Source of the DNA: Chromatiales bacterium
GTDB taxonomy: Bacteria; Pseudomonadota; Gammaproteobacteria; JAGRCI01
Direction of reading: 5' to 3'
Assembly (NCBI GenBank): GCA_020445565.1
Contig: JAGRGI010000081.1
Coordinates: forward strand, 4,412 to 68,411
DNA: 64,000 bases
Shown here: in pieces, positions 3,078 through 50,862 of the stretch
How the letters are laid out: every line of letters begins with the position of its first letter
Numbering within the stretch: the first letter of the stretch is position 1
Translations under genes and position numbers: made by a program
The notes under the pieces: model-generated
Database searches by the model: none
Told to the model about the DNA's origin: nothing
What the model saw: the letters and a program-made list of their open reading frames with translations, nothing else

Positions 3078-3323
3078 TCACCCCTCCAACTTCTTCAGCG
3101 CCTTTCTCCCCTTGTTCCGTTGGGCATGGAGTATCTGATAGCGCTTTTTCAGCATGTCGCGCTTTTCACCTTTACCAACCTTTCGGCACTTGGCGAGGAT
3201 GGCCTTTTCCTTCTTTCGAATCTGATCGACCAGCTTTTCCAGTTCGTCGATCTTCTTTTTGCGCCGCTTCGCCCCAAGATCGAGCAGCTCACCCAGGCGC
3301 TCAAGCAGTTTCTTTCCGGTCAT
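3078..3323 (-). CDS. Small lysine/arginine-rich coiled-coil protein of unknown function (81 aa)
   Basis: Complete ORF whose codon usage matches neighbouring genes; it is highly basic, e.g. KRRKKKIDELEKLVDQIRKKEK. It sits between the Na/Pi transporter gene and the cas operon leader. Confidence 0.45.
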   Translation of the reverse strand: MTGKKLLERLGELLDLGAKRRKKKIDELEKLVDQIRKKEKAILAKCRKVGKGEKRDMLKKRYQILHAQRNKGRKALKKLEG

Positions 3324-14134: not shown

Positions 14135-15832
14135 TCAGTCCGTGACCGCTCCCAGCGAAGCGGAACTCACCAACTTGGCATATTTCGCCAGTACGCCGCG
14201 GGTGTAGCGTGGCTCAGGTTGTTTCCATTGCGACAGGCGTTGCTGGATTTCCTCGTCGGAAACACCCAGGCTGAGGGCGTTGTTCACCGCATCGATCGTG
14301 ATGGCGTCGCCGTCGCGCACCACGGCAAGGGGTCCGCCGTTATAGGCTTCGGGCGTGATGTGGCCGACCACGAAACCATGGGTGCCGCCAGAGAAGCGGC
14401 CATCGGTGATCAGCGCCACATCGTTACCCAGCCCCTTGCCCATCACCGCCGAGGTCGGCGACAGCATCTCACGCATTCCGGGCCCGCCACGCGGCCCCTC
14501 GTAGCGAATCACGATCACATCGCCCTTCACCACAGTGCCGTCCAGGATGCGCTTCATGGCCTCTTCTTCGGAGTCGAACACGCGCGCCGTACCCTCGAAA
14601 CGCAGCCCCTCCTTGCCGGAGATCTTCGCCACCGACCCCTCGGGGGCGAGGTTGCCGCGCAGGATGCGCAGATGCGAATCCTTTTTGATCGGATTGTCGA
14701 GGGCGCGGACGATGTCCTGGCCTTGCATATAGGGCTGCACGTCCTTGAGATTTTCCGCCATGGTCCTGCCCGTGACGGTGAGGCAATCGCCGTGCAGCAA
14801 TCCGGCATCCAGCAGGGACTTCATCAACGGCAGGGTGCCACCGATGGCCACCAGCTCGGACATCATGTACTTTCCGGAAGGGCGCAAATCGGCCAGCACC
14901 GGCACTCGCTCGCCGATGCGGGTGAAATCGTCCAGGCTCAGTTCGACGCCCGCGCTGTGGGCCATGCCCAGCAGGTGCAGCACGGCATTGGTGGAACCAC
15001 CCAGGGTGATGACCACGGTAATGGCGTTCTCAAATGCCTGGCGGGTCATGATGTCGCGGGGACGGATTCCCTTTTCGAGAAGATTCAGCACCGCCTCGCC
15101 GGCCCGCTCGCAATCGGTTTGTTTGTCCGCCGAGATGGCCGCCTGGGCCGAGGAGTTGGGCAGGGACATGCCCAGGGCCTCGATAGCGGAGGCCATGGTA
15201 TTGGCGGTGTACATACCGCCGCAGGAGCCGGCGCCGGGAATGGCGCAGGACTCGATCTCGGCCAGCTCGGTATCGTCGATCTTATTGTTGGCGCGCTGAC
15301 CTACCGCTTCGAAGACCGACACGATATCCACCTTCTTACCGTGGTAGTCCCCCGGCATGATGGTACCGCCGTAGACGAAAACGGACGGCCGGTTGAGTCT
15401 GGCCAGCCCGATCAGACAGCCGGGCATGTTCTTGTCGCAGCCACCGATGGCGACCACGCCGTCGAAACCCTCGCAGCCGGCCACAGTCTCGATGGAGTCG
15501 GCAATCACCTCGCGGGAGACCAGGGAGTATTTCATCCCCTCCGTGCCCATGGAGATGCCGTCGGAAATGGTGATGGTATTGAAGATCACGCCCTTGCCGC
15601 CGGCTCGGTTCACCCCGGTCTCGGCCTCTTTGGCCAACTGGTCGATATGCATGTTGCAGGGCGTGACCATGGACCAGGTGGAGGCGATGCCTACCTGAGG
15701 CTTGCGGAAATCCTCGCGGGTGAAACCCACGGCGTGCAGCATGGCGCGGCTGGGTGCGCGCTCCATGCCATCCACCACTTGGGAGGAATATTTTCGACGG
15801 TCGTTGTTCTGGTCGTCAGGCCCGTTCGCCAT
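14135..15832 (-). CDS. ilvD: Dihydroxy-acid dehydratase
   Basis: Characteristic IlvD/EDD sequence throughout (CDKNMPG, SGGTHG, etc.). The tracker start at 15904 is a TTG; the ATG at 15832 (MANGPDD...) gives a canonical N-terminal length and has a GGAG upstream. Confidence 0.85.
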
Positions 15833-16003
15833 CTTGGTCAGCGCTCCACGATTGATCGGTTCGGATACGTAGCCGTTCGGCTGCCACCACGGTTGGCGGC
15901 TCAACTGTCTAAACAGCTACCGGCAAGCCCCTAATGATACCCCCTGCACCGCCTACTCGCGAAAGCCCTTGCGCGCCACCGGGCCGGAGCCCAGAATCTC
16001 CTC

Positions 16004-17173
16004 ATGCCTACCCCTCCCCTAATGACCATGATCGCCGACCTCATCGGCACGCCTTCCATGAGCAGCGTCTCGCCGGCATTCGACATTGGCAACGGCCCGG
16101 TGATCGAAAAGCTCGCGAGTTGGCTCAAGGACGCGGGTTTTGGCGTGGAGATCCTCCCCATCCAGGGCTATCCGGGCAAGTTCAATCTCATTGCGGTGCT
16201 GGGCCGCGGAGAGGGTGGCTTGGTGCTTTCCGGCCATACCGACACGGTGCCCTACGACGAAAACCGCTGGAGTCAGGACCCGTTTCGCCTTACCGAGCGT
16301 GACCAGCGCCTGTATGGGCTGGGCACCGCCGACATGAAATCCTTCTTCGCGTTGGCCATCGAGGCGGCCCGGGGACTGCGCCATGCAGACCTGAAGCGTC
16401 CCTTGACCATTCTTGCGACCGCCGATGAAGAATCCAGCATGTGCGGCGCGCAGGCGCTGCTGGATCAGGGCCGACGCCTGGGGGACTATGCCGTCATCGG
16501 CGAACCCACAGGGATGAAACCGATTCGCATGCACAAGGGTATTTTCATGGACGCGATCCGGCTCACCGGCAGGGCCGGCCATTCCAGCGACCCGGCACTG
16601 GGCAACAGTGCCCTGGAAGGGATGCATAAGGTGCTCGGCGAACTGCTCGCCTGGCGTTCGGAACTCCAGGCCAAGCATCGAAATCCCGCTTTTGCGGTGC
16701 CGGTACCGACCCTGAATCTGGGCCACATCCACGGCGGCGACAATCCAAACCGGATCTGCGGACAATGCGAGTTGCACATCGACTTGCGCCCGCTGCCCGG
16801 CATGGATCAAGGCGAGCTGCGTGCGCAGGTGCGCAACCGGCTTGAGACAGGTTTGGCCGGTAGCGGCTTGCAACTGGAGATTCTGCCCCTGTTCGAGGGC
16901 ATCCCTGCCATGGAAACTGCGGCACAATCCGCTATCGTGCGCGCCGCCGAACAACTCACCGGCAGCGAGGCACAGGCGGTTGCCTTCGGTACGGAGGCAC
17001 CGTATTTGAACGCCCTGGGTGTCGAAACGCTGGTGATGGGGCCGGGACACATCGACCAGGCCCATCAACCGGATGAATACATCGCTCTGGATCAATTGCA
17101 TCCCGGTGTCGATCTGTTGCGCAGTCTGATCCAGCGATTTTGCATGGAAAGCGCCCCCAGCGAGGACGCCTGA
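16004..17173 (+). CDS. argE: Acetylornithine deacetylase (M20 peptidase family)
   Basis: M20 metal-binding motifs (SGHTDTVP, ATADEE) over an ArgE-like length. Confidence 0.8.
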   Translation: MPTPPLMTMIADLIGTPSMSSVSPAFDIGNGPVIEKLASWLKDAGFGVEILPIQGYPGKFNLIAVLGRGEGGLVLSGHTDTVPYDENRWSQDPFRLTERDQRLYGLGTADMKSFFALAIEAARGLRHADLKRPLTILATADEESSMCGAQALLDQGRRLGDYAVIGEPTGMKPIRMHKGIFMDAIRLTGRAGHSSDPALGNSALEGMHKVLGELLAWRSELQAKHRNPAFAVPVPTLNLGHIHGGDNPNRICGQCELHIDLRPLPGMDQGELRAQVRNRLETGLAGSGLQLEILPLFEGIPAMETAAQSAIVRAAEQLTGSEAQAVAFGTEAPYLNALGVETLVMGPGHIDQAHQPDEYIALDQLHPGVDLLRSLIQRFCMESAPSEDA

Positions 17174-17503
17174 CGTCACCCGGTCGCCGGATCATGTTGC
17201 ACCCAAGGGGAACTGCGGAGTCCCAGTTGGACAGCAAATCCAGTCCACGGCCGAGCAGGTCCGGGCTTGAAGCCCGGAACATACCGTTACCCAAACCTCG
17301 ATCCTCGACTTAGCGCATGCACTACGGCGAGCCGCCCGTTTGAGATCGCCTTCTTCAGCATGCAAAGACTCACCTCAGGACCCGTGCCAAGCGTCACGAT
17401 GCGGCCGGAACAACATTCACGGGCCGGAAGCTTCGGCGATAGTAACGAGGCAGTGGTTCCAGGTCTCGCTGCCCATCGCAGTCGGGACGCCCCGATCAGC
17501 CGG

Positions 17504-18814
17504 TCAATGCGAAAAAATATCCCTGCGCCCGAATCGTATGAGCATGGCCCTGTAGCGTTTATACCGGGCGGCCTCGGTCTGTATCCACTCGTCCATACCC
17601 GCCGGATTCGTCGCTTTTTGTGCCCCATTGTTCGTCTGTCCGGTCGATCCGCCATCCCCGAAAAAATCGATTTGCCGCCGGAACAAGTCGACCCGATTGT
17701 TGCCAGTGATGGTGGCTTCCGCGGCCCGGACTAATTCGCCCGCCCTCGCCTCGTTGCCTTGGTCGATCTCCACTGCTGCCAAGTCCAGATACAAAAATGA
17801 TCGGAAGTCGGACGAAAGGCTGCACGAAGGATATTTTTCGGCGAGGAAGACTGCCTCGCTCAGCGATCCCGACGCCGCGTCCGCCCTTCCCTGCAGATGG
17901 TAAAGCTTCCCCAATTTTCGCCGGAACCGGACAACCTCCGAAATCTCATATGGTTCCGGCTTCCGCAGCTCTGCCTCCAAGACTTCGATCGCACCCTGAA
18001 TGTCCAAGGTGTTCAAGAGGCTCTCTATCAAGTTGTCCACAATCGAGCCCCTGGGAACCGCAAACGGGCCCGCTACCTGTTCCCGTATACGCAGGGCATG
18101 CCTAAGGGCAGTCTCGGCCATCTGGAGATCATGGAAGAGAACAAGGTATCCAAGCGACGCGAGCAGGTCGGATTCCAGGTTGGAATCACGTCCTAACCGT
18201 TGTTGTAGTGAGGTGATCGTAACCTCGATGCAAGGCTGCACTCGGGAGCCCCAGGATAACGTGCTCAGGAATTCGTCGAACCAGGCGACGGCATCGGGCA
18301 GGTCGGTGAGCGACAGCGAGTCGAACACGGATTCGATGTCTTTCAGATCCGCTCGCCACTCGCTATCGTCCGCAGGTGCACAGGGAGTATCCATCCAGGG
18401 GGTGTAGCCACCCCGCTCGGCACTGCATGCAATATGGTAGCGTTGCAGTACCAGATCCAGGCGGCGCGGATCATCGTGGGCAAGCACCGGCGAATTCCAG
18501 GCGCGCAGCAACAATTCCCTCGCTCGCATCCTCACCCAGTTGTCGCTCAACCGGTCTATATGCCAGCGCGCCGCGGCCACCGTCCGCTCCCATTGTTCCA
18601 TGGCGCTTGTGGCCTGCTCGATCTCCTTCTCGGACCAGTAATGCGCCTCGGGCAAGACAAAGCGATCCCACGGATGGACGCGCGCCTCGGTGCGAATGGC
18701 CAACATCGCCATCTGCCAATAGTGGGGATAGGCCTCCAACACGGCCGCTACCACGATGAGGACTGCAAATATAATGATGGAAATCCTGTTTTTCACCTTG
18801 ATCTCCCTGCTCAA
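17504..18814 (-). CDS. Membrane-anchored hypothetical protein (N-terminal TM, helical-repeat body) lying 70 bp downstream of the immunity gene
   Basis: 436-aa ORF with an N-terminal signal-anchor (IIIFAVLIVVAAVL) and no recognisable catalytic motif. Same strand as the toxin/immunity module. Confidence 0.5.
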   Translation of the reverse strand: MSREIKVKNRISIIIFAVLIVVAAVLEAYPHYWQMAMLAIRTEARVHPWDRFVLPEAHYWSEKEIEQATSAMEQWERTVAAARWHIDRLSDNWVRMRARELLLRAWNSPVLAHDDPRRLDLVLQRYHIACSAERGGYTPWMDTPCAPADDSEWRADLKDIESVFDSLSLTDLPDAVAWFDEFLSTLSWGSRVQPCIEVTITSLQQRLGRDSNLESDLLASLGYLVLFHDLQMAETALRHALRIREQVAGPFAVPRGSIVDNLIESLLNTLDIQGAIEVLEAELRKPEPYEISEVVRFRRKLGKLYHLQGRADAASGSLSEAVFLAEKYPSCSLSSDFRSFLYLDLAAVEIDQGNEARAGELVRAAEATITGNNRVDLFRRQIDFFGDGGSTGQTNNGAQKATNPAGMDEWIQTEAARYKRYRAMLIRFGRRDIFSH

Positions 18815-18884
18815 TTTGGACTGTCAGTCCTTGGTATTACAAGCGGAACACGGTCCACCCGATGCGTTCAAAGCCGGGTAGCCG

Positions 18885-19889
18885 CTATCGAAAATGCCAG
18901 TTGGCGCCGATTTCGTCGGCATACAGACGATTCTCGGCGATCTCGCGCAGGTACAACGATTCCATCAGTTGGGCGAAATTGCGGTAGCGGCGGAAGCCGT
19001 CGTACATGCCCTTGCTCAGCCACGCCTCCCACTCGCCGTGCTCATCCACCACCGCCGGGTTGAGCATCACGATGCCGCGCACGTCGCTGAACTCGCCGCA
19101 GATCACCAGGGCGCCGGGGATGTACTCGCGGCGCATGTCGGTGAGCGGGTCCTGGCTGGCGCTGTAGTTGAAGTAGCGCTCGTCCGGGACCGGGTCGTCG
19201 GGAACGAATTCACCAGCCATGTCCACCATCCACTCCTGGTACTCGGTGTTGCGCAAATAGTCGATGCGGTCGACCCAGGTTAGGTAGATGTCGCCCAGTA
19301 CCCAGCCGTTGGTCAGGCGCAGGAATTCCTTATACGACGGCGGCAGGGTCGCACCCAGGCGTTGCTCGGCGGCGCGGATCTGCTCATCGGTGGCCGGCGG
19401 GCGGCCGGAGGAGCTGTTGCGGATGATGTCGCCCCAGGAGAAGATGTCGACCAGGGTGTCGGGGCGTCGGCGTTTCATTGAGGCGAAATCTTCTCGGTAG
19501 AATTGCGTGAGCAACTCCGCAGCTTGCATGGCTAGGCGCCGGCCCTCCGGCGTGTTTCCGGGATACGGTATGCGGCCCCGATGAAGTTCTCGCGGCAAAT
19601 GCACGCCCGTTCGCTCTTCATATGCCGCGAGCTCCTCGTCCAGCGGGGTCACCATCTTGCCCTCCCAGAGCAAAATGGCGCGGGTAATCTCCAATAGTTC
19701 AAAGTCCCAGTCTTCAAGGAACTTCTTCCAACCTACTCTGGCAATGGAAACCGGTTCCGGGAGGTAAGCGGTCGCCTTCTGCATCCAGATGCGTCGGGCA
19801 GTGGGGTCTTCGGGGTTCATACAGGCCACCAGAGTAAATGTAAAGAATATGACGCGAAGCAATCGGAGTCGACAGATTGGCGTCGACAT
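18885..19889 (-). CDS. SUKH-1 (SMI1/KNR4) family immunity-like lipoprotein
   Basis: Internal ATG at 19889, 14 nt after the toxin stop, with lipoprotein signal MSTPICRLRLLRVIFFTFTLVAC (lipobox LVAC). C-terminal SUKH motifs ATDEQIRAAEQRLGATLPPSYKEFLRLTNGW and ...ALVICGEFSD. The tracker's longer ORF overlaps the upstream toxin gene in another frame. Confidence 0.65.
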   Translation of the reverse strand: MSTPICRLRLLRVIFFTFTLVACMNPEDPTARRIWMQKATAYLPEPVSIARVGWKKFLEDWDFELLEITRAILLWEGKMVTPLDEELAAYEERTGVHLPRELHRGRIPYPGNTPEGRRLAMQAAELLTQFYREDFASMKRRRPDTLVDIFSWGDIIRNSSSGRPPATDEQIRAAEQRLGATLPPSYKEFLRLTNGWVLGDIYLTWVDRIDYLRNTEYQEWMVDMAGEFVPDDPVPDERYFNYSASQDPLTDMRREYIPGALVICGEFSDVRGIVMLNPAVVDEHGEWEAWLSKGMYDGFRRYRNFAQLMESLYLREIAENRLYADEIGANWHFR

Positions 19890-19902
19890 GCCGGCCCCGT
19901 AC

Positions 19903-22900
19903 CTAACGCCTCCCATAGCAGACCTCCCCGCCGGGCAGTGCACCGTGGGTAACGGAACCCTCGGACAAATCCGTGCGAACCTCGTAGGGGTCGTTTGCAG
20001 AGATTCGACATTTGGCATAGAACTGCCGGAGGGTCCCGCCCTGGGCTTGGTTTTGACGGCGGGGCACCAGTCGCAGCGATACTCCGTCGGTGATGCCGAC
20101 CCCAGCCCCTTGGCGGGTGGAATAGAATGGATACTCGTCGCAATCGGGCTCGACATCATTCTTGTCCTTAAACTGGTCCCGATTGTTCCTGCTACACACA
20201 ATCTCCTTCCGATACCAAGTCCGATCCCCACCTGAGTCGTCCCCGTTGTCGACATTGGCCGTGATGGTCCCGATCGATGAGGTATAACCAAGGAACTCCA
20301 GCGTGCTGGGCGACCCACCGGCTTGGGCGTCCTGGACATGTGAGGTGATCTCGGTCATCGGCGTCAAACGGGTAGATTGTGAGGCCGACACGTAGACCTT
20401 GCAGTCGCCTTCGTCTGCCATGGCGGTGGCGGTACTCGCGGCGCCGAGGGGCAAGCTCCAGCGCCCGAGCTCGCGCAGAATCGGTAAAAAGAAACGGGCA
20501 AGGACGGCCAACGCGGGGGCAAGTGCGCCTCCCGCGGCACCTCCAGACGCCACTATTATGGCAAGAAGCACAATGGCGGCGATGATGGCCCACCACGGTA
20601 TCCGCACCCCGACCCGTTCTCCGTCTCCCGAATCGATAGAACAGGACGGCTGTTGCCCAAATGAAGGCGGTACCTCGAGCGGTCGCACAAAGCCGACGAA
20701 ATTGCCCATTCCCACGAGTGCCAACGACTTGTCCAATTCGCTCTGTGCGGCTCCGCCGTTGCTCCCGCCGCGAATGCGGTAGGCGCCCGCCCCGGTCTGC
20801 GGATCGATGAGCAAATAACCCTCGCCACGCCAGTCACCCGATTGGATCTGACCGGCACTCACCAGGGCCTGATGGCCGTTGGCGACGTGGAAACGCAGAT
20901 CCTCCCGTGTCTCGGGCGACAACGACAGCGTTGGGAGCACGCTTTCCAGGTTGTTTTCGGTCAGAGAGTGCAGGCGCTGCCCCTGCCGTTGGGCCAGGGC
21001 TAGGGCACTTACGGCGGAGACGCTGGTGGCAGGGTAGTCGGCGTTACCGATATATGCGACGGGTACCTCGTATTCCAGGGCCGACCCGATGGAGCCCAGG
21101 ATCTCGCGCAAGCGGGGCTCGTCCAAGTCGCCGCCGGCAAGCGGCACGACGGTTTCGCCCAGGTAGTCGATATCCACCGCCACACCACCCAAGTTCACGT
21201 TGCGCGGTGCGCCCAGAACGATCTCGGCATCCAGTTCGGTCGAGAAGGTGCCAAAAGACGGGTGGCGGTAGGTGACGCCCAGCCCCATCAAGGACAGGGT
21301 CTCCAGCGCTGCGTCCACATTCGCGAACCAGCTGCGGGCCATGCTGGGGAAAACGTTCTCTGGATCGTTGTACACGCTGTCGGTCAATTCCTGCGCGGGG
21401 ATGGAGCCGGGATTCACGGCGAGATACAGCCACTCGCCGGCATCGGGCTGGTTGACGGCCACTGCCTGGCCGCCGCCGAGTCGGTCGATGGTGGTCACGC
21501 TTACCAGAGCCTGGCCCAGGGTGTAGGGACCGGCACTGGCGACGACCTGGCTGTCTAGCCGCAGCTCGGCGATCAGCCGAATGCGGTGGCCGGGCAGGCG
21601 GCGGGGCAGATCTCGGAAGGTGGCCGTGGAATCGCTGGGATCGGGCAGTTGTTCCTCAATGAGCCGGCGATCGGCATCGCTCGCGGGGCGATAGCGCAAT
21701 TGCAACTGTCGCCCAACCAGTTCCGGGAGAGCGATCCGGTGGTACAGCTGGGGGATCTCGTGGGTGCGCTCGGCCTCGTTTCGATACAGGGCGAAGGAAA
21801 AGGCGATGCGGGCGCTGTCCGGCAGTTCAGAGGCCACGGCAAGGTCTTGATGGCCGGAGCCCATGAGGCCGGATGGGAGGACGGGAAAGTCCATACGTGC
21901 GATGGCGCGGCCTCGCCAGGATTGCTCCTCGTCGAAAACGGCGTCCGCGAGGGAGTCCTCCCAACGGGGTAGGAGACTGGCGAAGTCCACCTGTTCCAAA
22001 CCTTCAATGGCCCCGTCAGCCGGATTGATACTCAAACCGGACAACGCCGTGCGTATCTCCTCGCGCACGGACTCAACCGCCGGATTCTGGAGGTCTGGTG
22101 CGGCAGAGTACTCGTATCGCTTCAGGCTGGCGTCAAGCGGCAGCCAAGTGTCCCCCTCCCTTTGAACGGCGCCTCGTGAGGGAAAGTAGTCGATCCACGC
22201 CTCCACCCAGACATGTTCGAGACGGATGGCGACGATCCGCCCGCCACTCGCCAAACCGGAGGCCGGGATGCCGCCTTGGCCGAGCACAGCCAAAACCTGC
22301 TCAGGGCGTTCGACCCCACCTAGCCAGTTCATGGCCAGATCCACCGGCAGATCGATGGTGCCGAATCGGTAGCGGGCCTGGATGCCAGCGACCCGGTACA
22401 AAGCAACCAGCAGACTGCTGATGTCGAAGGCGTTGCCTTGGCCCGTCTGGAGCGTGTAGTCGGCACCCTGGATGGAACCCCAGGTGGGCACATAGTCGAT
22501 CTGGTTGCGTACCCAGTTGTAGATCGCCACTGGCTGGTTGCCGAGTTGCTCGGCAAGTTGACGTATGGCCGGAGTAAAACGCACCTCGGTGCTCTCCCCG
22601 AGATAGTCCTCACCGCCAATCGCCTGTTTTTCAGGTGCGGAAGTCGGTGGCAACATCGCATTCCGGTACACCTTCAGTTCGGTAGCCGAGTTGGCCGGTT
22701 TTCGTGCTTCGGGGACGATCTGACCGAAGGCAAGCGGCGGCTTACCCGCCATGGGGATAGCGGGAATCGGGACCTCGGCCTGAGCCACCGATTTCTCATT
22801 CGCGGCATGCACCGGGCCGAGGAGTGCGCAGTTGAATATCTCCAGGGTCAGCAGAGCGACGAACTTGAAAAACCGGCGGTTCGGATTCAACCAGGCCACG

Positions 22901-22977
22901 CATCGCCAAGCCGATGTCCGTTCGGTGTCTACGGCTGCGGCGTGGGTGGCTCGATGACGATAGGTCGACGTATTCAT
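19903..22977 (-). CDS. Polymorphic-toxin-like secreted protein: signal peptide, transglutaminase-like domain lacking the catalytic Cys, long central region, one TM helix, and a C-terminal NucA/NucB-type DNase domain
   Basis: Transglutaminase-like core GQGNAFDISSLLVALYRVAGIQARYRFG...EHVWVEAWIDY...WLPLDAS, with no Cys in the catalytic motif. TM helix WWAIIAAIVLLAIIVASGG. C-terminal DCDEYPFYSTRQGAGV...LRLVPRRQNQAQGG resembles the NucB motifs DRDEWPMA..GGAG..VRYVTPSDNRGAGS. The ATG overlaps the stop of the upstream giant gene (ATGA). Confidence 0.65.
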   Translation of the reverse strand: MNTSTYRHRATHAAAVDTERTSAWRCVAWLNPNRRFFKFVALLTLEIFNCALLGPVHAANEKSVAQAEVPIPAIPMAGKPPLAFGQIVPEARKPANSATELKVYRNAMLPPTSAPEKQAIGGEDYLGESTEVRFTPAIRQLAEQLGNQPVAIYNWVRNQIDYVPTWGSIQGADYTLQTGQGNAFDISSLLVALYRVAGIQARYRFGTIDLPVDLAMNWLGGVERPEQVLAVLGQGGIPASGLASGGRIVAIRLEHVWVEAWIDYFPSRGAVQREGDTWLPLDASLKRYEYSAAPDLQNPAVESVREEIRTALSGLSINPADGAIEGLEQVDFASLLPRWEDSLADAVFDEEQSWRGRAIARMDFPVLPSGLMGSGHQDLAVASELPDSARIAFSFALYRNEAERTHEIPQLYHRIALPELVGRQLQLRYRPASDADRRLIEEQLPDPSDSTATFRDLPRRLPGHRIRLIAELRLDSQVVASAGPYTLGQALVSVTTIDRLGGGQAVAVNQPDAGEWLYLAVNPGSIPAQELTDSVYNDPENVFPSMARSWFANVDAALETLSLMGLGVTYRHPSFGTFSTELDAEIVLGAPRNVNLGGVAVDIDYLGETVVPLAGGDLDEPRLREILGSIGSALEYEVPVAYIGNADYPATSVSAVSALALAQRQGQRLHSLTENNLESVLPTLSLSPETREDLRFHVANGHQALVSAGQIQSGDWRGEGYLLIDPQTGAGAYRIRGGSNGGAAQSELDKSLALVGMGNFVGFVRPLEVPPSFGQQPSCSIDSGDGERVGVRIPWWAIIAAIVLLAIIVASGGAAGGALAPALAVLARFFLPILRELGRWSLPLGAASTATAMADEGDCKVYVSASQSTRLTPMTEITSHVQDAQAGGSPSTLEFLGYTSSIGTITANVDNGDDSGGDRTWYRKEIVCSRNNRDQFKDKNDVEPDCDEYPFYSTRQGAGVGITDGVSLRLVPRRQNQAQGGTLRQFYAKCRISANDPYEVRTDLSEGSVTHGALPGGEVCYGRR

Positions 22978-25900
22978 CGACGGGGGCCTCCTTGCGGATG
23001 GGTAACGGTTCGGTGTCGCAGGCCGATCCAGACGGTCATCAGGATCAGCAACGCCAGGTTGGCGGAGTTCAACAGCGGCACGGCGAGAGGTTCGACTATG
23101 CCTTGGGGCAGGACAACCTGGAAATAGGCATAGGACAGGGTCTGCCAGTCTTCGTCGGCCTTGCGCAGACGACGCGGGTCCGGTGCGGGGCGTGCTTGCA
23201 GCAGACAGGCGTAGTTGCCGGGGGGCAGTTCGGCGGTGTCGATGGCTTCCTGGTGTTCTGGGGCGTCGCCGTTGAGGGTGTCCAGGTTGCGGATTCGATC
23301 GAGCACTACCTCGCCGGTCTCCAGGTTGACGAGCCGCTGACGGATTTCCAGGTTGGTCAGGGTTCCGCCGAGAGTGCTGAGTCGATCCATGCAGGCGTTC
23401 GCCTCGCCGCGGACGACCTGGGGCTTTTCGGTCTCGATCAGGCCGTTCAGGCTGCGATTGAAGGCTTGGGCGACGGTAAAGCCGGCCTCGTCGGTGGCAA
23501 GCAGGCCGAACCGGATATCCACGGCCTGGGCATGAACCTGGTAGGCGCCGGGTTCGGCTCCCGAAAGGGGTAGCGTCAGGCCATGTGGGGTTTGTTGGCC
23601 TGGGGCGAGTTGGCCAATGGGAATGCCTTGCCGCAGGATATCCGTACCCCGGGGATCGACTACCTGGACCTGCAAGGTAATGTCGGAAAACAGTGCGTCC
23701 GTACTGAGATTTCGCAACAGGTTGTCGATACGCACCAGGTCGTTGGCGTTGTACTCGGCCCGGTCGGTGGTGGTGCGCAGACTGGCTTGCCGGTCGGCGA
23801 GCAGGGTCGAGACGATTTGGAAGGGGGCGAGGTCTTCGTCGATCGGTTCGCCACGGTCGTCATACAGCAGACCGTGCAGTTGGTAGTCTCCGGTCAGGAT
23901 GCCGTTGGCGGGCCAGTCGACGCCGATGGGATGGCTGGTCCCCACGCTAAGATTTTCCAGATCCACGTCGTCGAAGCGGGTCACGACTTGGCCGTTGCTG
24001 TCTTCCACTTGCAGTACGGCGGTAAAGGTTCCGCTAAGTGCGCCGGTATTTAAGATGAGGGCACTGAGGTGAGCGGTGGCGTCCGAGGTGTAAGTCGGGG
24101 CATCGGTGGCGACGGTGAGGCTCCCGACCGTGGCGAGCGTCGCCAGGGGGATGGCCATTTGGTTGTTGACCTCGTTGCATTCGTCGATGGCATTGGCGGC
24201 ATCGACGACGACGTAGAGCTCGTTCTGGTTGAACAGTTCTACGGCATCGAGCGAAAGGTCACGATATTCGCCCACCGCCAGGGGCGCGACGATTTGGTCG
24301 CCGAGCAGGATTCCGCCGACGGCCGGATCGCCTTGATAAAAGGTCAGGCGGGCCTCGCCGGTGGGGGTAAGGCCGCCGTTGCCCACGCGTACCGTCAGAC
24401 GGGGACGCGCTTGCGAGGTCTGATCGAAGCGCAACAGGGATACGCTCAGATCCGGCAGGGCCAGTGGATCGCGGCCGGGGAAGGCGTTGAGGCGATAGGT
24501 ATTGTGGACCAGCCAGGAGGGTTGTTCGTGCGTCGGGATGGTGCCGTCGTCGTTGATGTTGGTGATGTGGTAGCTGTGCTGGTTCCAGATGGCGCGGGTG
24601 GGTGCCCAGTCGTCGTTGGCGGACTCGAAGGCATAGACGCCGGAGTCCACCGCCGGGTTGCCGTTGAAGATTCGTGCATCGGAACAGACCAGCAGTTCGG
24701 CATGGCCATCATTGTCGATGTCGGCGACGACCGGCATCTCCGTGCCGGTTCCAGAGAGCACGGGTCGAGCGTGCAGCACCTGACCATCGCTACCACGGTA
24801 GATACGCAGGAACCGCTCGTCGCGATACACGACTTCTGCGGCTCCGTCCCCGTCGAAGTCGAATGACGTCGAGCCAGTAACGGTAGAACTGTAGTCCTGT
24901 GTCGGCGACGACCAAAGAATGGAGCCGTCGGTGTCGAATACTGTGTAGCTGCTGGCCCCCGCGACAGCGATCTCTGGCCTGCCGTCACCATCAAAATCCG
25001 CAATGGTTGGCGCACCGCCATATCCCCCCCCGGAAGCACAACCCTGCCGCTGATTGCATGCCAAAGGCTCGCACTTGATCCGTCGTGCTCCAACAAATAT
25101 ACGTAGCCACCGCCAACGACCACAATTTCGGCAAAATCATCCTCGTCGAAATTGCCGACTGCGACGAAACCTTCCGGGACACCACTCCCCTCCAACACCA
25201 ATCCGTGACGGTCGTATGAATACACACTGCTCCCGGCAACGATTTCCGGGACGCCATCGAGATCGACATCCGCCACAGCAGAAACAACGGTATACAGGTT
25301 GAATCCCGAGTGACCTCCGAGGGCTCTGCCATCGGCGAGAACGTGTCCCTGGGCATCGTAAACGACCGCACCGACCACGATTTCCGGGACGCCATCGGCG
25401 TCCAGGTCGGCAATGACAATCGATCCGCCGGAGTCAGAGCGACCGGGCAAAGTCAGCTCGTCGCTCGCCCATTTGAATGTCAGGTCATTCTCGAAGGCGA
25501 GAAGCTGTTTGCCATTTTGGGAAGCGCCGATCACTTCCGGCACGCCATCGCCATCGATGTCGCCAATGGCAAGTTCGGTGATTGCCCCAACCAATTGATT
25601 GGGTGGGCTGGTGTACAGGGTTCTCCCGTCGTCTCCGCTTATCGCATAGATCTGACCGCCGTTGAATTGTCCATTTGGTACGGTGGGAAACACAATGTCG
25701 GGGACATCGCGAACACCGATGTGCCCATCGCCGTTGTCGTCGGTAAGATTTGCGACTAGGGGCGTGGAGATGACATCAATCCGCTCGTTCTCAAGGGCAT
25801 GAAATTTTACGACCGGATCGAATGTTCCAGGCGGCGATACTGGCAACCGGCACAGAGCAGACGAACTACCGACGTTATTCCCCTCCTCCGCCTCATCGAT

Positions 25901-28900
25901 CCGCAAGTCGCTGTCGACCATGGCAAAGATGGGCGCATCACGGAAACGGGTCGTGCCGTTGACGAGGATGTCGATGGTCAGCGACGCGCCACCGGCCAAC
26001 CCATTCGGCAGGGTTCGGGCGGCCAGGGCATTATCGGTGCCGGGATCGTATCGGCCGTTGCCGTTGAGGTCTTCGAACAGGCTGACACGCGCCGGCAGTT
26101 CGGCCGCGGCCAGGGCGAGGTTTTCCACACGGACTTGGACGATACCGCTGATGTCAAGCGTGCGTGGATCGCTTTGCAGGCCTGCGGTATCGATGGCGGA
26201 AACCGTCAAGTCTGGTTTGGGGCGGTAGGAGCCGATGGAGACATGAACGGTGTCATTATCCACGCAACCCCGGTCGTCGATCACAAACAGGGTGACGTCC
26301 CGTTCCTGCGCGGAGGTGAACCGGTGCTGCGCGCTCGCCCCGGTGATGTCGATCTCGTTGTCGCCGTCCAAGTCCCAGGCGTAGGTGACGATGTTGCCCT
26401 GGGAGGCGCTAGCGTTGAATTGGATAGCGGTTTGCGCATCGGCAACGATATCCTGCCCTGCGTCAGCGGTTGGCTTTTCTGCGCAACGCATTCCGCCAAC
26501 GGCGTCAATTTCAGCATCGGCGGACTGCCAACCTTCGAGCGGACTATGGTCGTCTACGTCGCTCCAACTGGTACGGTCTTGGGTGTCAAAAATCGAGATG
26601 GAATTATCCGCCTTCAGGCGAACATACCGATACCCCGTGCCACGAAAGGCGTACAGTCCGGCGTAGTCATCGATGTTTGCCGTTTCGCCGCATAGGGCAC
26701 GATTGTCCGACCAGCCTTGAACGTAAATGCTGACCAAAGTCGCCTGCGTCCAACCGTCCGGGAAAATCGATTCCGGATCGTCAGATCCCCAAATGGTGTA
26801 CTCAACACCTTCCTGCGGATAGGGGGCATGATCTACGAAGGGAAATACCGTAACGGCAAAGAATCGCTCACCCATATCCCAGATAACGTCGTTGTCGTCG
26901 GATGTCGATTCGAGCGGATCAAAAGGATCATAGCCAGCGGCCATGGACCGAAAATCAAGACCGTTCGCTGCATACGCAATATCCTGCAAACTATTCTCCC
27001 TGATGGTGTCAAAAGCAAAACCGCACCCCATTGGCGATTGAGCTGTCCAGGTATGAGGGCGTCCTCCCGAAACATGGCGTCCCAGGATATAGTTGTCCGG
27101 CACCAACGCATCGCGCGTCAGACCATGGAGTGTCTGCACGTCCGTGACGACATAGGTCGTCGCACTGTTCTGCAGAACCTCAACGGTAATACTTTCCTGC
27201 GCAATTCCTCCGTAGGCGTCGACCACAGTCACAGCGAAGTCATGGTTACCCACCTGCGCCAAGGTCGGCAGCCAACGAATCTGCCCGGTGTTGGAATCGA
27301 TCTGCATCCCTGCCGGGGCCTCGGCCAAACCGAAACGCAACGCGTCGCCCTCCGGGTCGCTGGCGGCTACGGTATTTAGGTAGGTCTCCCCCACCCGAGC
27401 CTGAGTCGGGGCGGCGGACAGAATCGTCGGCGGTTGATTCGAGGACAGCGGGGCGAAGGCAGCCATGGCCAGGTCCGTCAGGTCGACGACACTCCCCGCC
27501 GGGGCTTGCACGGACAGCGAAACCGGGTGGTAGCCGTTCAGGTTGAACGTAAAATCGAGGTCGCCGGAGGTGATCCCGCCGATCTCGAAGGTGCCGGCGG
27601 CGTCGGATAGGGCGGATGGCCGACCGTCGATGCTGACGGTGACATCCGCCAGGGGGAACCGCGTAACGCTATCGACGACACTGCCGTACACCCGAACCGC
27701 GTCCGCAACCTGCTCAAGACGGGGCGCGAATACCAACACCTCGCCCGCCGCCAGGGTGGCATGACCGGAGGCACTGTGATAACCGTTTCGTTCGGCGACG
27801 ATGTCGATGCTGCCGGTGGACAGGTTGTCGAATGTGAAGCGGCCGTGGGAGTCGGTGAGCACACGGGTTCGGCCGACGATACGGATGTCCACATTGGGCA
27901 AGGGTGCCCCCGAGTGACTGTCGGTGACGGTTCCATACACCCGGGCGGTGGTGACGTCGTGCGTCGGCGTGAGCCGCAGCTCGCCCAGATCGAGCACCTG
28001 TCCGGCGAGCAGGTCCACGGCGGTGGACAGCAGGCCATAGCCGACCCGCTGTACCGTGAGCCGATATTGACCCTCATCGAGGTTCGAAACGACGAACCCG
28101 CCATCGGGATCCGTACCAAGACCCAGATTCTGCGGCCCGGTCAGTTGGAGAGATACCCCGGCCAGGGGCTGGCCAGTAGAGCCGTCGCTCACCTGGCCCC
28201 GCAGCATTCCCTGTTGTGGGTCGATTGCGGGCGAGGCCACATCGGCCAGCGCTCGCAGTGCCAGGGCGGTCTGGTACGCGTCACCGTTCCAACTGCCGTC
28301 GACGTTCTGGGCGGCGCGCAAGCGTTCGATAGCGGGTTCCAACGTTGTCCGATCCGACAAATGGACGGCGAGGAAGAGCAGTGCCAAAGCGGTTTCGTGG
28401 GTCTCGGCCCAGACACCTTGGGCGTTGCGTCGGGCCAGCAGGAAGCCCTCGGCGGCTTGCAGAGCGCTGCGAAGTTCGTAAAGCGGACGGAACCACCACA
28501 AGATACGTGCCACCAGGGCGGTAACGTATATCGAGGAGGCATTGCCGCTTTCGCCCCAGCCCCCATCATCGCGCTGGACGTTCTGTAGATAACCGACGGC
28601 ATAGGCCGCCGCCTCGGTGTGCGTATAGCCGGCTGCGGCCAGACTCTCCAAAGCAAAGGCGGTATCCAGGACGCTGCTGTAGTAGCCGACCGCAAAGCCG
28701 AAACCGCCGTCGACATTTTGGCGACTCAGCAGTTGTGAAACCCACTCAGAAGAGTCCAGGCCGGTTTCCGCGAGCGCAATAATCTGGCGGGACAGGTATT
28801 CAGTGCTCAAGGCATCGGTATCGGCGCCGAGCAGAAAATCGCGGGCTGCCATGCTGGCAGGATCCGCGCCCGACTCCAGCAGCACCAGGGCACGCAGGGA

Positions 28901-29110
28901 CTCTGCCGTAGACTGAGTGGCGGTGGCGACATCGTCGGTCGTTGTGAGACTGCCATCGGGCGAGGAACGGCTGCCCAACCAGGCGATGCCCTCCGCAGTA
29001 CCTGCCCATCCAGGCATCACAGGCAAGCAAACCAATAGACAAAAAAGCAGGGACGCAATCGCGGACGGTTTTCGGCATGGCGGCCGAATCCATGAGTTAC
29101 GGGGTTCCAT
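22974..29110 (-). pseudogene. Giant secreted multidomain surface/adhesin-like protein (~2,040 aa if fused), split into two overlapping ORFs (24446..29542 and 22974..25064) by a frameshift at a homopolymeric G tract
   Basis: N-terminal signal peptide. Prenyltransferase/terpenoid-cyclase-like repeats (QNVDGGFGF, QRDDGGWGE, QNVDGSWNG). Three carboxypeptidase-regulatory-like domains. A cadherin-like 'putative Ig' domain, a PKD domain and two CARDB domains. At least 10 FG-GAP/VCBS repeats (DxDGDGxxE) spanning the frameshift. A C-terminal hydrophobic helix plus basic tail. Likely ATG starts at 29110 or 29125 (after MEPRNSW.../signal); the tracker's 1698-aa ORF begins further upstream at 29542. Confidence 0.6.
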
Positions 29111-29407
29111 AGAGCAGGATTCCATTCGGTTGAAACGACTAATGTCGCGAAGTACACCGCTTTCCCCGTCTGCGGTCAAGACCATTGCGTGTACGAAAAT
29201 TCTTACAAACTCAACATCTTGGGAGAGATAATCTTCGATAGTCAAAACACTGGCGACACAGACGAGGCAGTGCAATTCAAGGAGAATGCCGCCTTGAACG
29301 CGGTGCTTCTTGGCAGGCAATCGAGGTTTGCGTAACGGTGAGATTTTGACTGAAACCCCGGGCCTGCGTTGGCCATGTTGATGTGAGGCCAAGGGCCTGC
29401 ATTGACT

Positions 29408-29471
29408 TCGGCGCACATCCGGGCTTTCACCTCCCTGTGGCTGGATTCCGCCGCTCCCTGGCGGAATGACG
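29408..29471. repeat. Conserved ~64-nt element, copy 2 (hairpin ATTCCGCC-N7-GGCGGAAT with SD and ATG on the minus strand). It lies ~290-360 bp upstream of the giant surface-protein gene and ~110 bp upstream of divergent hupE.
   Basis: About 58 of 64 nt are identical to 2985..3048. The stem is conserved while the loop differs, which is a compensatory pattern. On the minus strand, GGGAGGTGA then an ATG open a 58-codon ORF that is not conserved beyond MCAE. Confidence 0.6.
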
Positions 29472-29583
29472 GTACCGCCGACCATCGTCTGCATAGGAAG
29501 TGCCGCCCCCCACCAGCCTTGCCGCATTGCGGGAATGGGCATAGGATTGCCGAACTAAACTCAGCATCTCCGGAGGAAATGCC

Positions 29584-30171
29584 ATGCGTCAGCGCCCGCA
29601 CGCCTACCTCGGTCTGTTTGTCCTGTTAGCACTGCTACCCCTGGCAGCGGTGGCCCATGAACAGGGGGCGATCGGGGCCAATGCGTTTCTTACCGGCTTC
29701 ATGCACCCCTTGGGCGGCTTGGACCACATGCTGGCGATGTTAGCCGTGGGTATGTGGGGCGCGCAGTTGGGCATGCCGGCCCTGTGGTTGCTTCCAGTAG
29801 CCTTTCCGCTGCTGATGGCGGTAGGTGGCGTTATGGGCATGGTCGGCTTTCCATTGCCGACGGTCGAACTGGGCATCGCCCTGTCTGTGCTGGCACTGGG
29901 CGGGGTCATCGCCCTCAATTTTCGCGCTCCGTTATGGGCCAGCCTGCTGATCGTCAGTTTTTTTGCCGTGTTCCACGGTTACGCCCACGGCATGGAACTG
30001 CCCGCGCAGACCAACCCGCTTTCCTATAGTCTGGGCTTCGTGGTCGCCACCGGCCTGATTCACCTTGCCGGCATCGGCATCGGCATGGTTACCCACCTGC
30101 CGCGTGGCATGACGCTGCTGCGTGCCGGCGGCGGCGCCATTGCGGCGGCGGGGGCATTCCTGCTGGTATGA
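29584..30171 (+). CDS. hupE: HupE/UreJ family metal (Ni/Co) transporter accessory protein
   Basis: Signal peptide, AHEQGAIGANAFLTGFMHPLGGLDHMLAML (the HupE/UreJ His motif) and 6 TMs. Confidence 0.75.
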   Translation: MRQRPHAYLGLFVLLALLPLAAVAHEQGAIGANAFLTGFMHPLGGLDHMLAMLAVGMWGAQLGMPALWLLPVAFPLLMAVGGVMGMVGFPLPTVELGIALSVLALGGVIALNFRAPLWASLLIVSFFAVFHGYAHGMELPAQTNPLSYSLGFVVATGLIHLAGIGIGMVTHLPRGMTLLRAGGGAIAAAGAFLLV

Positions 30172-30773
30172 GAACCCTGCTGGCGCTGGGGCTGACGCTG
30201 ATCGCCAACCCGGCCTTTGCCCATATAGGTATCGCCGCCAATGATTTGTACGCCGGGATGCTACACCCGGCGATTCACTTCACCACCCTAATGCCGCTGC
30301 TGGCCCTGGCCTTGTGGCTTGCCCAGCAACCGGCCGATACCTTGCGCCTGTCCGTTCCGGCCTTTTTGCTCACAGCGCTCGCGGGCGCCGTGCTCGCGCT
30401 GTTCCTTCCTCATCTGCCCGACGCCTCGGTGGCCTATCTGCCATTGACCCTCGTTCTCGGGGTGATGGTCATCGCCGCATGGCGCGGGCCGGCCTGGTTG
30501 GTCATCGGCCTGGCTGCCGCGACCGGGTGGGCCGAGGGCTATGGCAATCTGTCCACGGTACGGGGCGAATTGGCCGACCCGATGCTTTTCACTGTGGGCC
30601 TGCTGCTCACTTTGGGGCTGATACCGCTTCATCTGGTCGGCCTGCTGTATCAACGTGAACAACTCTGGATACGCACGGGTGCCAGAGTCGCGGGCAGTTG
30701 GATCACGACGGCGGGTTTTCTGGTTCTGGCCCTGCAGTGGACCGGCCACGATTTGAGCACCATCGCGCCATGA
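30168..30773 (+). CDS. HupE/UreJ-like paralogous membrane protein
   Basis: Same architecture with a related N-terminal motif AHIGIAANDLYAGMLHPAIH. ATGA overlap with the preceding gene. Confidence 0.55.
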   Translation: MRTLLALGLTLIANPAFAHIGIAANDLYAGMLHPAIHFTTLMPLLALALWLAQQPADTLRLSVPAFLLTALAGAVLALFLPHLPDASVAYLPLTLVLGVMVIAAWRGPAWLVIGLAAATGWAEGYGNLSTVRGELADPMLFTVGLLLTLGLIPLHLVGLLYQREQLWIRTGARVAGSWITTAGFLVLALQWTGHDLSTIAP

Positions 30774-35440: not shown

Positions 35441-36544
35441 ATGCTTGCGATAAAACAACGGCCCAAGGAGCAACCCGTGGCATTGTTCTCCAAACGCTAT
35501 CATCCCCCCGGCACCCCGCCCGGCACGCTGGCGCCGGCAACCGATCAGGCGCCTCCACGCATTCGGCGCATCGACTATTCGGCCTCACAGATCGACGTCA
35601 AGGAAGCGCTTTGTCTGGACGACTGCACGCCCAGTCCGAACGCGGAATCGATACGCTGGGTACACCTCCAGGGCACACCGGACGTGGCAACCCTGTCGCA
35701 CCTGGGCAGGGTGTTCGGCCTACACCCCTTGGCACTCGAGGACGTGGCCAATTCCGGCCAGCGACCGAAATTCGATGCCTTCGACGAGCACCTGTTCATC
35801 ATACTCAGCCTGCCCGAACTGATCGATGGCCATGTGCGGACCCGCCAAATCAGCCTGTTTCTGGCCCCGCGTCTGGTGCTGAGCTTCTGCGAAGGCGAAC
35901 AGGATCCCTTCGAAGGACTGGTTCGGAACCTGCAATTGCGCTCGGGGAAGATTCGCAGCCTGGGAGCCGACTACCTGCTCTACGCGTTGATGGACACTGT
36001 CATCGACCAACCATTCCCGCTGCTGGAGGAATTCGGCATGCGCCTGGAACAATTGGAAGAAAGCTTGCTGGAATACCCCAATGAAGCCACGCTTGCCGAA
36101 ATACACGGCGTAAAACGGGATCTGATCCTGCTGCGGCGCCTGCTGTGGCCTCAGCGCGAAGTGGTGAACCGTGTGCAGCGAGACGGCGAGGATCTGATCA
36201 CCGACAACACTCGCCTCTACCTTCGCGACTGCTACGATCACACCGTGCAGGTGATGGATCTGCTCGAATCCTACCGGGAGATGAATGCGGCCCTTTTGGA
36301 CATATACCTATCCAGCCAGGGGAATCGCATGAACGAGGTGATGCGCGTCCTAACCGTCATCGCCACCCTGTTCATTCCCCTGACCTTCATCGTTGGCCTC
36401 TATGGAATGAATTTCGATACCAGGGTCAGCCCATGGAACATGCCAGAGTTGGGTTGGCGCTATGGCTATGTCGCAGTTTGGGGACTGATGATCGCCATGG
36501 TGGTAGGGATGCTGGCCTACTTTCGGCGCAAAAACTGGATTTGA
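35441..36544 (+). CDS. corA: Magnesium/cobalt transporter CorA
   Basis: GMN motif (YGMNFD) before two C-terminal TMs; CorA-like length. Confidence 0.85.
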   Translation: MLAIKQRPKEQPVALFSKRYHPPGTPPGTLAPATDQAPPRIRRIDYSASQIDVKEALCLDDCTPSPNAESIRWVHLQGTPDVATLSHLGRVFGLHPLALEDVANSGQRPKFDAFDEHLFIILSLPELIDGHVRTRQISLFLAPRLVLSFCEGEQDPFEGLVRNLQLRSGKIRSLGADYLLYALMDTVIDQPFPLLEEFGMRLEQLEESLLEYPNEATLAEIHGVKRDLILLRRLLWPQREVVNRVQRDGEDLITDNTRLYLRDCYDHTVQVMDLLESYREMNAALLDIYLSSQGNRMNEVMRVLTVIATLFIPLTFIVGLYGMNFDTRVSPWNMPELGWRYGYVAVWGLMIAMVVGMLAYFRRKNWI

Positions 36545-37134
36545 TCGCCTGACGGATCGCCCGTACCGGGCGTAGCCGTGGCTGGCAGATGCTCTTCGGC
36601 CTGTGGCACCACCGGTTCGCCGCTCAGTATCGGGGCGGCATCCCAACTGCCCGCATCCATCATGTCTGCCACCCGCCGCAGAGCTTCGGTCAACGATTGC
36701 CGCTCCTCTACCGGCAATCCGTGAAAACGGGAAATGAAGGTCTCCTGCAACAGCGGTGGCGAGGTCTTCAGGACCAGCCTGGCGGATTCGGTAACCGACA
36801 CCAGCACGCGACGCCGGTCCTCATCGGCCCGCAGACGCTCCAACATTCCCCGGGATTCCAAGCGTTTCACCACATCGGTAATGCTTGCCTGGCTCAGACT
36901 CACCCGACGTGCCAATTCGCCCGCCGTAAGCGGCCCTTCTCGGGCTACCACACTGAGTATCAAGGCTTGCGGGCCGGTGAGCCCATGGCACCGATACAAT
37001 TCCCGCGAGTGCAGGTCCACTGCCCGCATGATGCGCCTCAGGGAAGTAAGAATCTGATCGGAAAGCGAACTGACGTCAGACACCGCGAGCAGCCGGATTT
37101 GCCCCCTATTGAGGCCGCACCATATTGGTGCCAC
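36517..37134 (-). CDS. MarR-family transcriptional regulator with a C-terminal extension
   Basis: Winged-helix MarR core (LTGPQALILSVVAREGPLTAGELARRVSLSQASITDVVKRLESRGMLER). Confidence 0.7.
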   Translation of the reverse strand: MAPIWCGLNRGQIRLLAVSDVSSLSDQILTSLRRIMRAVDLHSRELYRCHGLTGPQALILSVVAREGPLTAGELARRVSLSQASITDVVKRLESRGMLERLRADEDRRRVLVSVTESARLVLKTSPPLLQETFISRFHGLPVEERQSLTEALRRVADMMDAGSWDAAPILSGEPVVPQAEEHLPATATPGTGDPSGDQIQFLRRK

Positions 37135-50791: not shown

Positions 50792-50862
50792 AACGAGAAA
50801 AACTCCCCATCAAGGCCCATACTGTTAGGATAGTTAGACCCCCCCTTCCCTGCAATATTCAA

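Follow-up and report, generated by a model that had tools for sequence, protein, structure and literature searches.

A probable solo CGTC-tagged REP with a spacer-end stem-loop upstream of hupE in an uncultured gammaproteobacterium

A repeated element near hupE

The element that lies upstream of the hupE gene in 64 kb of DNA (the window) from an uncultured, sulfur-oxidiser-like gammaproteobacterium is, with a probability of roughly 0.8, a solo CGTC-tagged REP accompanied by a stem-loop of the type found at the ends of REP dimer spacers. This makes it non-coding interspersed repeat DNA that is neutral, or nearly so, at the present site. The kind of repeat is already known, as CGTC-tagged REPs were defined by Di Nocera, De Gregorio and Rocco (2013, BMC Genomics 14:522; PMC3733652). 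No description was found in the searchable literature of the present subfamily or of the 144-bp element that carries it in other bacteria. The element probably has no dedicated regulatory role next to hupE and may persist as a selfish or structural repeat.

Organization of the two copies in the window

A repeat search of the window retrieves a 71-nt unit present in two direct copies on the + strand, copy 1 at positions 2985-3055 and copy 2 at 29408-29478. The copies are 87% identical and their similarity in pairwise alignment stops at both unit ends. Each half of the unit has exactly two matches in the window when up to 3 mismatches are allowed, against none expected from 100 shuffles. A covariance model of the conserved core recovers the two copies with E=4e-15 and 3e-13, while the next best window match has E=0.7, and it finds no third copy of the core in the 64-kb window. 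The copy number in the source organism, counted within these 64 kb only, amounts to two singletons, and the presence of no more than two copies over such a length counts against the REP reading.

Copy 2 is composed of a 19-nt lineage-specific extension, a small stem-loop and a CGTC-type REP hairpin. The REP proper occupies positions 29442-29471 and is oriented on the minus strand, as read from the sequence against the published definition (PMC3733652) and from stem covariation. It comprises the tag CGTC (29471-29468), the first stem arm ATTCCGCC (29467-29460), the loop AGGGAGC, the second stem arm GGCGGAAT (29452-29445) and the tail CCA (29444-29442). The two arms form the palindrome ATTCCGCC-N7-GGCGGAAT at 29445-29467, a perfect 8-bp inverted repeat. 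The second, smaller stem-loop (29427-29440) reads TCAC-CTCCCT-GTGG on the + strand, and its minus-strand reading gives the Shine-Dalgarno (SD)-like motif GGAGGTGA. In copy 1 the REP reads CCTC-ATTCCGCCA-GGGAA-TGGCGGAAT-CCC on the minus strand (3048-3019, the CCTC tag at 3048-3045), its second stem-loop is degraded and a mini-ORF coding MCAE* is found at 2995-2981. Both copies follow the minus-strand scheme ...CATTCCGCC-loop-GGCGGAATCC..AGGGAGGTGAAAGC(C/T)CGGATGTGCGCCGA.

The homology of copy 2 to members of the family found in metagenomes is confined to 29424-29473. The extension, which spans 29408-29426 in copy 2 and includes an ATG (29418-29416, minus strand), is common only to the two window copies, and no counterpart of this stretch of 16-19 nt occurs in any of the 94 metagenome loci. 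The region of the extension is also the best-kept stretch between the two copies (26 of 27 nt), so that a function specific to this lineage is conceivable. With respect to a minus-strand operon located 240-300 nt downstream, the two copies are oriented alike, the operon beginning with csb1 for copy 1 and with the giant-protein gene for copy 2.

Single-sequence folding yielded z-scores of -0.75 to +0.13 and is thus uninformative without the family. Neither the window nor 15 loci that bear the element gave an Rfam match at gathering score, and no relevant match with E<=10 surrounds the two copies. Plasmid, phage and viral collections yielded nothing useful for the exact core of the window copies or for the 144-bp element, and searches of the literature for the literal element sequence returned unrelated primers only. 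In species-representative genomes, just three chance-like matches (one Caulobacterales MAG and two Antrihabitans) were obtained with a pattern that covers both the SD-like motif and the hairpin, so that the species with this sequence is not represented among them.

Assignment to the CGTC-tagged REPs

CGTC-tagged REPs have an unpaired CGTC tag, with TGTC and CCTC as variants, a stem of 8-9 bp that starts with complementary A and T, a loop of 4-5 nt and a 3-nt tail that is mostly CCA (PMC3733652). They occur mostly as head-to-head dimers with the tags outside, the spacers of which can bear small stem-loops at their ends, and they are without an associated transposase (PMC3733652). Four families were described, mainly in Alphaproteobacteria, and the dRS3 repeats of Neisseria are CGTC-1 elements (PMC3733652). 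The present elements were assigned to the class on this definition as worded.

Read on the minus strand, the tag is CGTC in copy 2 and CCTC in copy 1, and GACG stands 3' of the hairpin (+ strand) in 73 of the 77 family members. Both copies have the stem ATTCCGCC(A)/(T)GGCGGAAT, with the terminal A and T of the class. The loop has 5 nt (GGGAn) above a 9-bp stem in copy 1 and in most members; in copy 2 a G is opposite a T at the closing pair, which gives a loop of 7 nt, versus the published 4-5 nt, when only Watson-Crick pairs are counted. The tail is CCA in copy 2 and CCC in copy 1, and CTGG is found 5' of the hairpin (+ strand) in more than 90% of the members. The window copies also agree with CGTC REPs in their extragenic site and in the absence of a transposase: none is encoded in the window, and no recurrent one flanked by repeats was seen near the family copies in the limited sample available. 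Their relatives in metagenomes share the head-to-head dimers with tags outside and the small stem-loops at spacer ends.

Further differences are apparent. The published repeats come mostly from Alphaproteobacteria whereas the present host is a gammaproteobacterium, and they are mostly dimers while the window copies are singletons with a private extension of 16-19 nt. The second stem-loop of copy 2 corresponds to the small stem-loops at the ends of REP dimer spacers (PMC3733652). The solo REP and this stem-loop would then be part of a former, or potential, head-to-head dimer.

The GTAG REPs and REPINs of E. coli, Pseudomonas and Stenotrophomonas are likewise short tagged extragenic palindromes, placed mostly after genes, and their singletons are often remnants of inverted dimers. 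The tag of these RAYT-associated repeats is GTAG, in contrast to the CGTC/CCTC found here, and no RAYT (IS200-like tyrosine transposase) gene is seen near any copy of the present element. No RAYT gene flanked by repeats is known for the CGTC class.

Structure and distribution of the family in metagenomes

The hairpin alone (GGATTCCGCCNNTCCCTGGCGGAATGA) is present in 94 metagenome contigs from many organisms. Alignment of these contigs defines a conserved core of about 50 nt with two small hairpins, TTCACnTCCCTGTGA-CTGG-ATTCCGCCA-nTCCC-TGGCGGAAT-GACGG, and the window copies match the family over this core only. A covariance model of the core finds 162 copies in 595 kb of these contigs. In the core alignment 92.5% of cells are paired and 12 of the 14 pairs feature compensatory double changes, a level that is reached by none of 500 shuffles and by no slid control. 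Pairing of the main stem is kept in 98.4% of cells. The second stem-loop shows compensatory changes across the family as well, with CG, GC, AU and UA at two of its pairs, and RNAalifold applied to the unfitted alignment returns the same two hairpins. The loops, ATCCC and TCCC on the + strand, are near-invariant.

G-U pairs were counted against A-C appositions, with 6 versus 9 in hairpin 1 and 18 versus 24 in hairpin 2 (closing pair left out), revealing no strand bias. The constraint therefore acts on Watson-Crick hairpins, which is what one would expect of structures at the DNA level or of elements that can be transcribed from either side. A strand-specific RNA structure on the + strand, hinted at by three G-U-compatible changes in copy 2, was dismissed on the family counts. 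The REP hairpin is kept as a structure with a conserved loop in a strand-neutral form, a pattern that fits a hairpin or cruciform at the DNA level, or transcription either way.

More than 95% of the copies are intergenic and they occur in either orientation, which is about random relative to genes across the family. Singletons are found between co-directional (37), convergent (11) and divergent (8) genes, a distribution that matches the published pattern for REPs (PMC3733652). No protein family recurs beside the element in a limited sample of neighbours, whose top clusters are ABC ATPases, RTX-like and Uma2-like proteins. About half of the copies are arranged as inverted pairs with their GACGG ends outward. 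The two arms of one dimer have different yet internally compensated stems (CCGGCA/TGCCGG versus CCGCCA/TGGCGG), which argues for recognition of a structure and not of an operator sequence. Integron attC sites were considered and discarded: the motifs that resemble core sites (GTTAAGC/GCTTAAC) do not follow the right order, and the copies occur in housekeeping spacers.

Carrier elements and other scaffolds

In many cases the inverted pair makes up both arms of a palindromic element of 144 bp that has the termini CAATGCCATTAAGTTAAG...CTTAACTTAATGGCATTG. Such elements carrying head-to-head CGTC-type REP dimers are found in contigs L026, L030, L035, L061, L065, L066, L081 and L083, among others. 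A 10-nt direct duplication (with at most 1 mismatch) flanks 5 of the 13 complete copies, for which the chance expectation is below 1e-3. A sixth duplicated copy, with a perfect 10-bp repeat, is uncovered in L065 once a nested IS630-family insertion is removed. The target duplications of the 144-bp elements measure 9-10 bp, and they show that in related bacteria a miniature transposable element can carry REP dimers along when it moves. No autonomous partner of the 144-bp element was found. The insertion nested in L065 (3367-4457) codes for HTH and DDE ORFs, has a TA duplication and bears the ends C.Y.GGATAGRCGAC; its transposase was considered as a partner of the REP and set aside, being part of an unrelated insertion at TA.

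The dimer of the relatives is reminiscent of MITEs such as Correia/CREE, ERIC and RUP, as it resides in an element with terminal inverted repeats (CAATGCCATTAAGTTAAG) and target duplications of 9-10 bp, whereas the window copies have neither terminal inverted repeats nor a target duplication. No fewer than six scaffolds whose termini are unrelated bear the same 50-nt core close to their ends (e.g. L014, L058 and L069; L007 and L029; L009; L005 and L079), hence the core is not defined by any single MITE. These mosaic scaffolds recall the NIMEs of Neisseria and the BIMEs of E. coli. CGTC REPs were reported to be without a dedicated transposase, and the 144-bp carriers suggest that one way for them to spread is inside miniature elements that a transposase mobilises. 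The hairpin dimers within 144-bp elements would provide such a route in related bacteria.

SD-like motif and short ORF

On the minus strand of copy 2 the SD-like GGAGGTGA (complement of 29427-29434) stands 8 nt before the ATG at 29418-29416, and the spacing is the same in copy 1. The earlier note on this DNA had described this ATG as opening a 58-codon ORF in copy 2 (MCAEVNAGPW..., 29418 down to 29242) and as followed by a stop after four codons in copy 1. Both statements are borne out by the sequence, the ATG of copy 1 (2995-2993) leading to MCAE and then TAG. The note had argued that the conserved unit is a nucleic-acid element and not a protein, unless the 58-aa product was translated and conserved in relatives, and this view is supported. 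A search of 5.8 billion proteins finds no homologue of the product, nor even the product itself as a called protein, and it has no Pfam match. The GC content at its three codon positions (GC1/GC2/GC3) is 0.47/0.56/0.63, versus about 0.66/0.45/0.75 in the genes of the window, and public gene calls on identical contigs pass over the ORF. The case for a genuine peptide is the workable spacing between the SD-like motif and the ATG; with the same start yielding a 4-codon ORF in copy 1 in addition to the absence of coding signal, we hold it next to impossible that the 58-codon ORF is a small-protein gene.

The GGAGG sequence arises in one form of the second hairpin's loop and 3' stem (CAGGGA[T/C/G/A]GTGAA), when an unconstrained position is C on the + strand, and it is present in 20 of the 77 family members. 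No other member of the family has the ATG or the first four codons, and the ORFs of the two copies diverge after codon 4. The SD-like motif and the ATG, like the 58-codon ORF, arise incidentally from the repeat sequence and from the flanking DNA.

The hupE locus and the 12.3-kb insertion

The hupE gene (29584-30171, + strand) codes for a HupE/UreJ protein (Pfam HupE_UreJ, E=4.5e-54) and is followed by a second HupE/UreJ gene (30168-30773). Copy 2 ends 105 nt before the hupE ATG (29584), in agreement with the ~110 bp of the earlier note, which also placed the element correctly in a divergent spacer: a gene for a giant secreted protein starts on the minus strand at ~29110-29125, or at 29017 as called in public assemblies. 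The exact HupE protein is found in several public metagenome assemblies together with identical upstream DNA. Two contigs from different runs (independent assemblies) end inside the element, as expected at a repeat.

The closest relative found, contig L104, encodes a HupE that is 94% identical, and its hupE gene lies directly after the peptidase M20 gene (corresponding to window positions 16004-17173). The segment 17181-29510 is therefore an indel relative to L104. This 12.3-kb segment, delimited by synteny and by CACC microhomology at both junctions and characterised by Pfam, codes on its minus strand for giant secreted proteins (CarboxypepD_reg, PKD, FG-GAP, CARDB). It includes a 1024-aa Transglut_core protein with a C-terminal DNase_NucA_NucB domain (19903-22977), followed by a SUKH/SMI1_KNR4 protein (18885-20339); by their domains they resemble a polymorphic toxin with its immunity protein.

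Copy 2 belongs to the 12.3-kb segment and ends 32 nt short of its right edge. The orthologous region of L104 lacks the element and keeps 70 nt before hupE, including TTGCCG-N17-TAGCAT and an SD sequence. The promoter-like counterpart in the window, TTGCCG-N17-TAGGAT (29519-29547, + strand), is outside the element and belongs to the only upstream stretch kept in L104. It scores below threshold in a consensus promoter scan, and its conservation suggests that it is the hupE promoter, in which case the element would be outside the hupE transcript. It is likely that the element spread, or was carried, into its position with the 12.3-kb insertion, and it does not belong to the ancestral control region of hupE. 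A candidate regulatory signal or uORF is thereby removed from the hupE spacer, and the likely control region of the gene is 29516-29583. This region and L104 1935-2005 share AATGGGCATAG(G/C)ATT, which overlaps the -10-like hexamer and is a candidate operator for metal regulation of hupE. Readings of the locus as a sigma-54 promoter, a hupE riboswitch or an intrinsic terminator found no support in Rfam or in the promoter scan.

Possible roles of the element

The earlier note had proposed two regulatory roles that the data do not favour. One is a bidirectional operator in which the palindrome is bound by a regulator, such as the product of the nearby MarR-family gene (36517-37134), and controls hupE and the divergent giant-protein operon. 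A perfect inverted repeat of 8 bp located between divergent genes, 105 nt ahead of the start of hupE, would suit this role, but L104 has hupE and its promoter-like sequence without the element, which in the window lies ~40 nt upstream of the conserved -35-like hexamer. An identical hairpin is found in the 94 contigs beside unrelated genes. Unlike a dimeric operator, it has covarying stems, keeps an asymmetric loop and forms dimers whose arms differ with compensated stems, and copy 1 is outside a promoter region. An operator function is most improbable. The different settings of the two copies, one after a gene and the other in a divergent spacer, also argue against a shared cis-regulatory role. 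The other proposal, a translation-initiation cassette or uORF, finds no support in view of the occurrence of GGAGG in only 20 of 77 members and of the location of the ATG in an extension private to this genome; like the operator, it fails to account for the recurrence of the element in unrelated intergenic contexts of many organisms and in both orientations.

A broader form of the latter proposal is that the GGGA-loop hairpins, the SD-like motif and the mini-ORF constitute a minus-strand RNA module, acting as uORF or translation cassette or as a CsrA/RsmA-type site in an operon leader. The motif stands 8 nt before an ATG in both copies, which are both located 240-300 nt upstream of minus-strand operons, that of csb1 and that of the giant protein. 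On this strand the second hairpin has the family consensus ACAGGGAUGU, which places GGA in the loop above a stem of 4-5 bp and fits 10 of the 12 positions of the CsrA SELEX consensus RUACARGGAUGU (PMC7652899), a likeness weakened by the random orientation of the family. That orientation also speaks against the module itself, as do the absence of a G-U excess on either strand, the lack of the ATG and first four codons in every other member, ORFs that differ after codon 4 and are devoid of coding composition, and the absence of any Rfam family match. Moreover, copy 1 is in the 3' region after a gene, ahead of a terminator-like hairpin, while copy 2 is in a divergent spacer. The module is very unlikely. 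We grant an equally slight chance to a variant in which the solo REP and its private extension were co-opted in this lineage as a portable CsrA/RsmA-like RNA module on the minus strand, ahead of the acquired operons (cas genes and toxin island). If true, newly acquired operons would come under post-transcriptional control, and the edge position of the module might also reflect a role as joining site. 

The REP hairpin could also serve as a site where foreign segments are joined to the chromosome, a role compatible with the solo REP reading, to which it would add a function; the position at the edge of acquired modules would then be causal. In Neisseria, such a role was proposed for dRS3/NIME arrays and for the integration of filamentous phages into dRS3, and dRS3 was suggested as a recombinase target (PMC1797815). 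Copy 2 is 32 nt inside the right edge of the segment absent from L104. Copy 1 begins 22 nt after the last gene kept with relatives, the 81-aa gene, and ahead of the cas module, at a position where contig L108 has an integrase island. The tag end faces the conserved flank in both cases, and contigs L020 and L022 diverge exactly at the hairpin foot. However, there is no second REP copy at the left edge of the 12.3-kb segment, its junctions have only a 4-bp CACC microhomology 32 nt from the element, and no recombinase is encoded in the window. Just two loci are concerned, for which chance placement in variable DNA is possible, and the L020/L022 junction may be an assembly chimera at the repeat. 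We regard a recombination joint as rather unlikely. The two contigs (L020 7150-7400 and L022 7031-7281) have 190 nt in common from the REP hairpin foot and are unrelated on both sides, the outcome of either a rearrangement or an assembly chimera. An att site or tRNA-linked island between the two direct copies was also examined and discarded: tRNAs are absent, identity between the copies is 87%, and the L104 indel (17181-29510) does not match the interval between them.

Relationship to Neisseria dRS3 and NIME

The occurrence of dRS3 and NIME in Neisseria was reportedly documented by Parkhill in 2000. dRS3 has the sequence ATTCCC-N8-GGGAAT and forms arrays with NIME (Bentley 2007, PMC1797815). 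The window hairpin is not a literal dRS3 unit, as its stem ATTCCGCC(A) gives ATTCCG-N11-CGGAAT, of 23 nt overall versus 20 nt. A query with the dRS3 stem placed in the flanks of the present core matches N. gonorrhoeae with 100% identity over 31 nt (CCGTCATTCCCGCGCAGGCGGGAATCCAGTC), at no fewer than 40 places per record. The same query also matches Photobacterium (in arrays with a 90-nt period), Azospirillum, Cupriavidus, Legionella, Aeromonas and a Microcystis phage. One Neisseria unit has the same layout as the present dimers, CCGTC-hairpin-CCAG ... CTAG-hairpin-GACGG.

The two systems have in common the ATTCC...GGAAT stem ends, the flanks (CCGTC on one side, CCAG/CTAG on the other), the inverted pairs with GACGG outward around variable spacers, and an association with variable DNA. 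A metagenome dimer (L047) pairs an arm of literal dRS3 pattern with the present hairpin. They differ in the long arrays of Neisseria, of which there are none in the window, and in the link to a filamentous-phage recombinase, which is not seen here. By sequence comparison the window hairpin is related to dRS3 and not dRS3 itself, sharing with it only the flanks and the terminal ATTCC/GGAAT. Both window copies are located at borders of strain-variable DNA, like the dRS3 arrays in Neisseria.

A replicon of Photobacterium sp. GJ3 (NZ_CP073579.1; L111) has dRS3-like hairpins (CTGGATTCCCGCCTGCGCGGGAATGACGG) at 9230-9680 and 14800-17200, organised as a tandem with a 90-nt period and as longer mixed arrays. 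They represent a NIME-like clustering outside Neisseria in a record without annotation.

The copy 1 locus and other features of the window

Copy 1 begins 22 nt past the stop codon of a co-directional 81-aa gene that accompanies a Na/Pi transporter in relatives, and it is followed on the minus strand by a terminator-like hairpin. The homology to relatives ends at this stop codon. The 81-aa ORF (3078-3323, minus strand) is lysine-rich and has no Pfam match. An 82-aa gene is found directly after the Na/Pi cotransporter in L108 and L109 (transporter identity 78%), and the 81-aa ORF is probably a genuine small gene that is linked to the transporter.

An open frame starting MFALAIRYLNGW, a putative csb2, comes after the csb1/cas7u gene (1538-2743, minus strand; Cas_GSU0053, E=1e-52) and runs off the left end of the window. 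In type I-G/I-U systems csb1 is usually preceded by csx17/cas8u or cas3. Neither is found before csb1 in the window, where REP copy 1 and unrelated genes are present instead, and the cas operon may be rearranged or truncated near csb1.

On the other side of hupE, genes for PilS/PilR-type regulators are found at 49181-52191. They are followed by a region of low GC content (52000-60000; 45-52% versus about 61%) that codes for glycosyltransferases, methyltransferases and a CmcI-like enzyme and is probably an acquired glycan-biosynthesis cluster.
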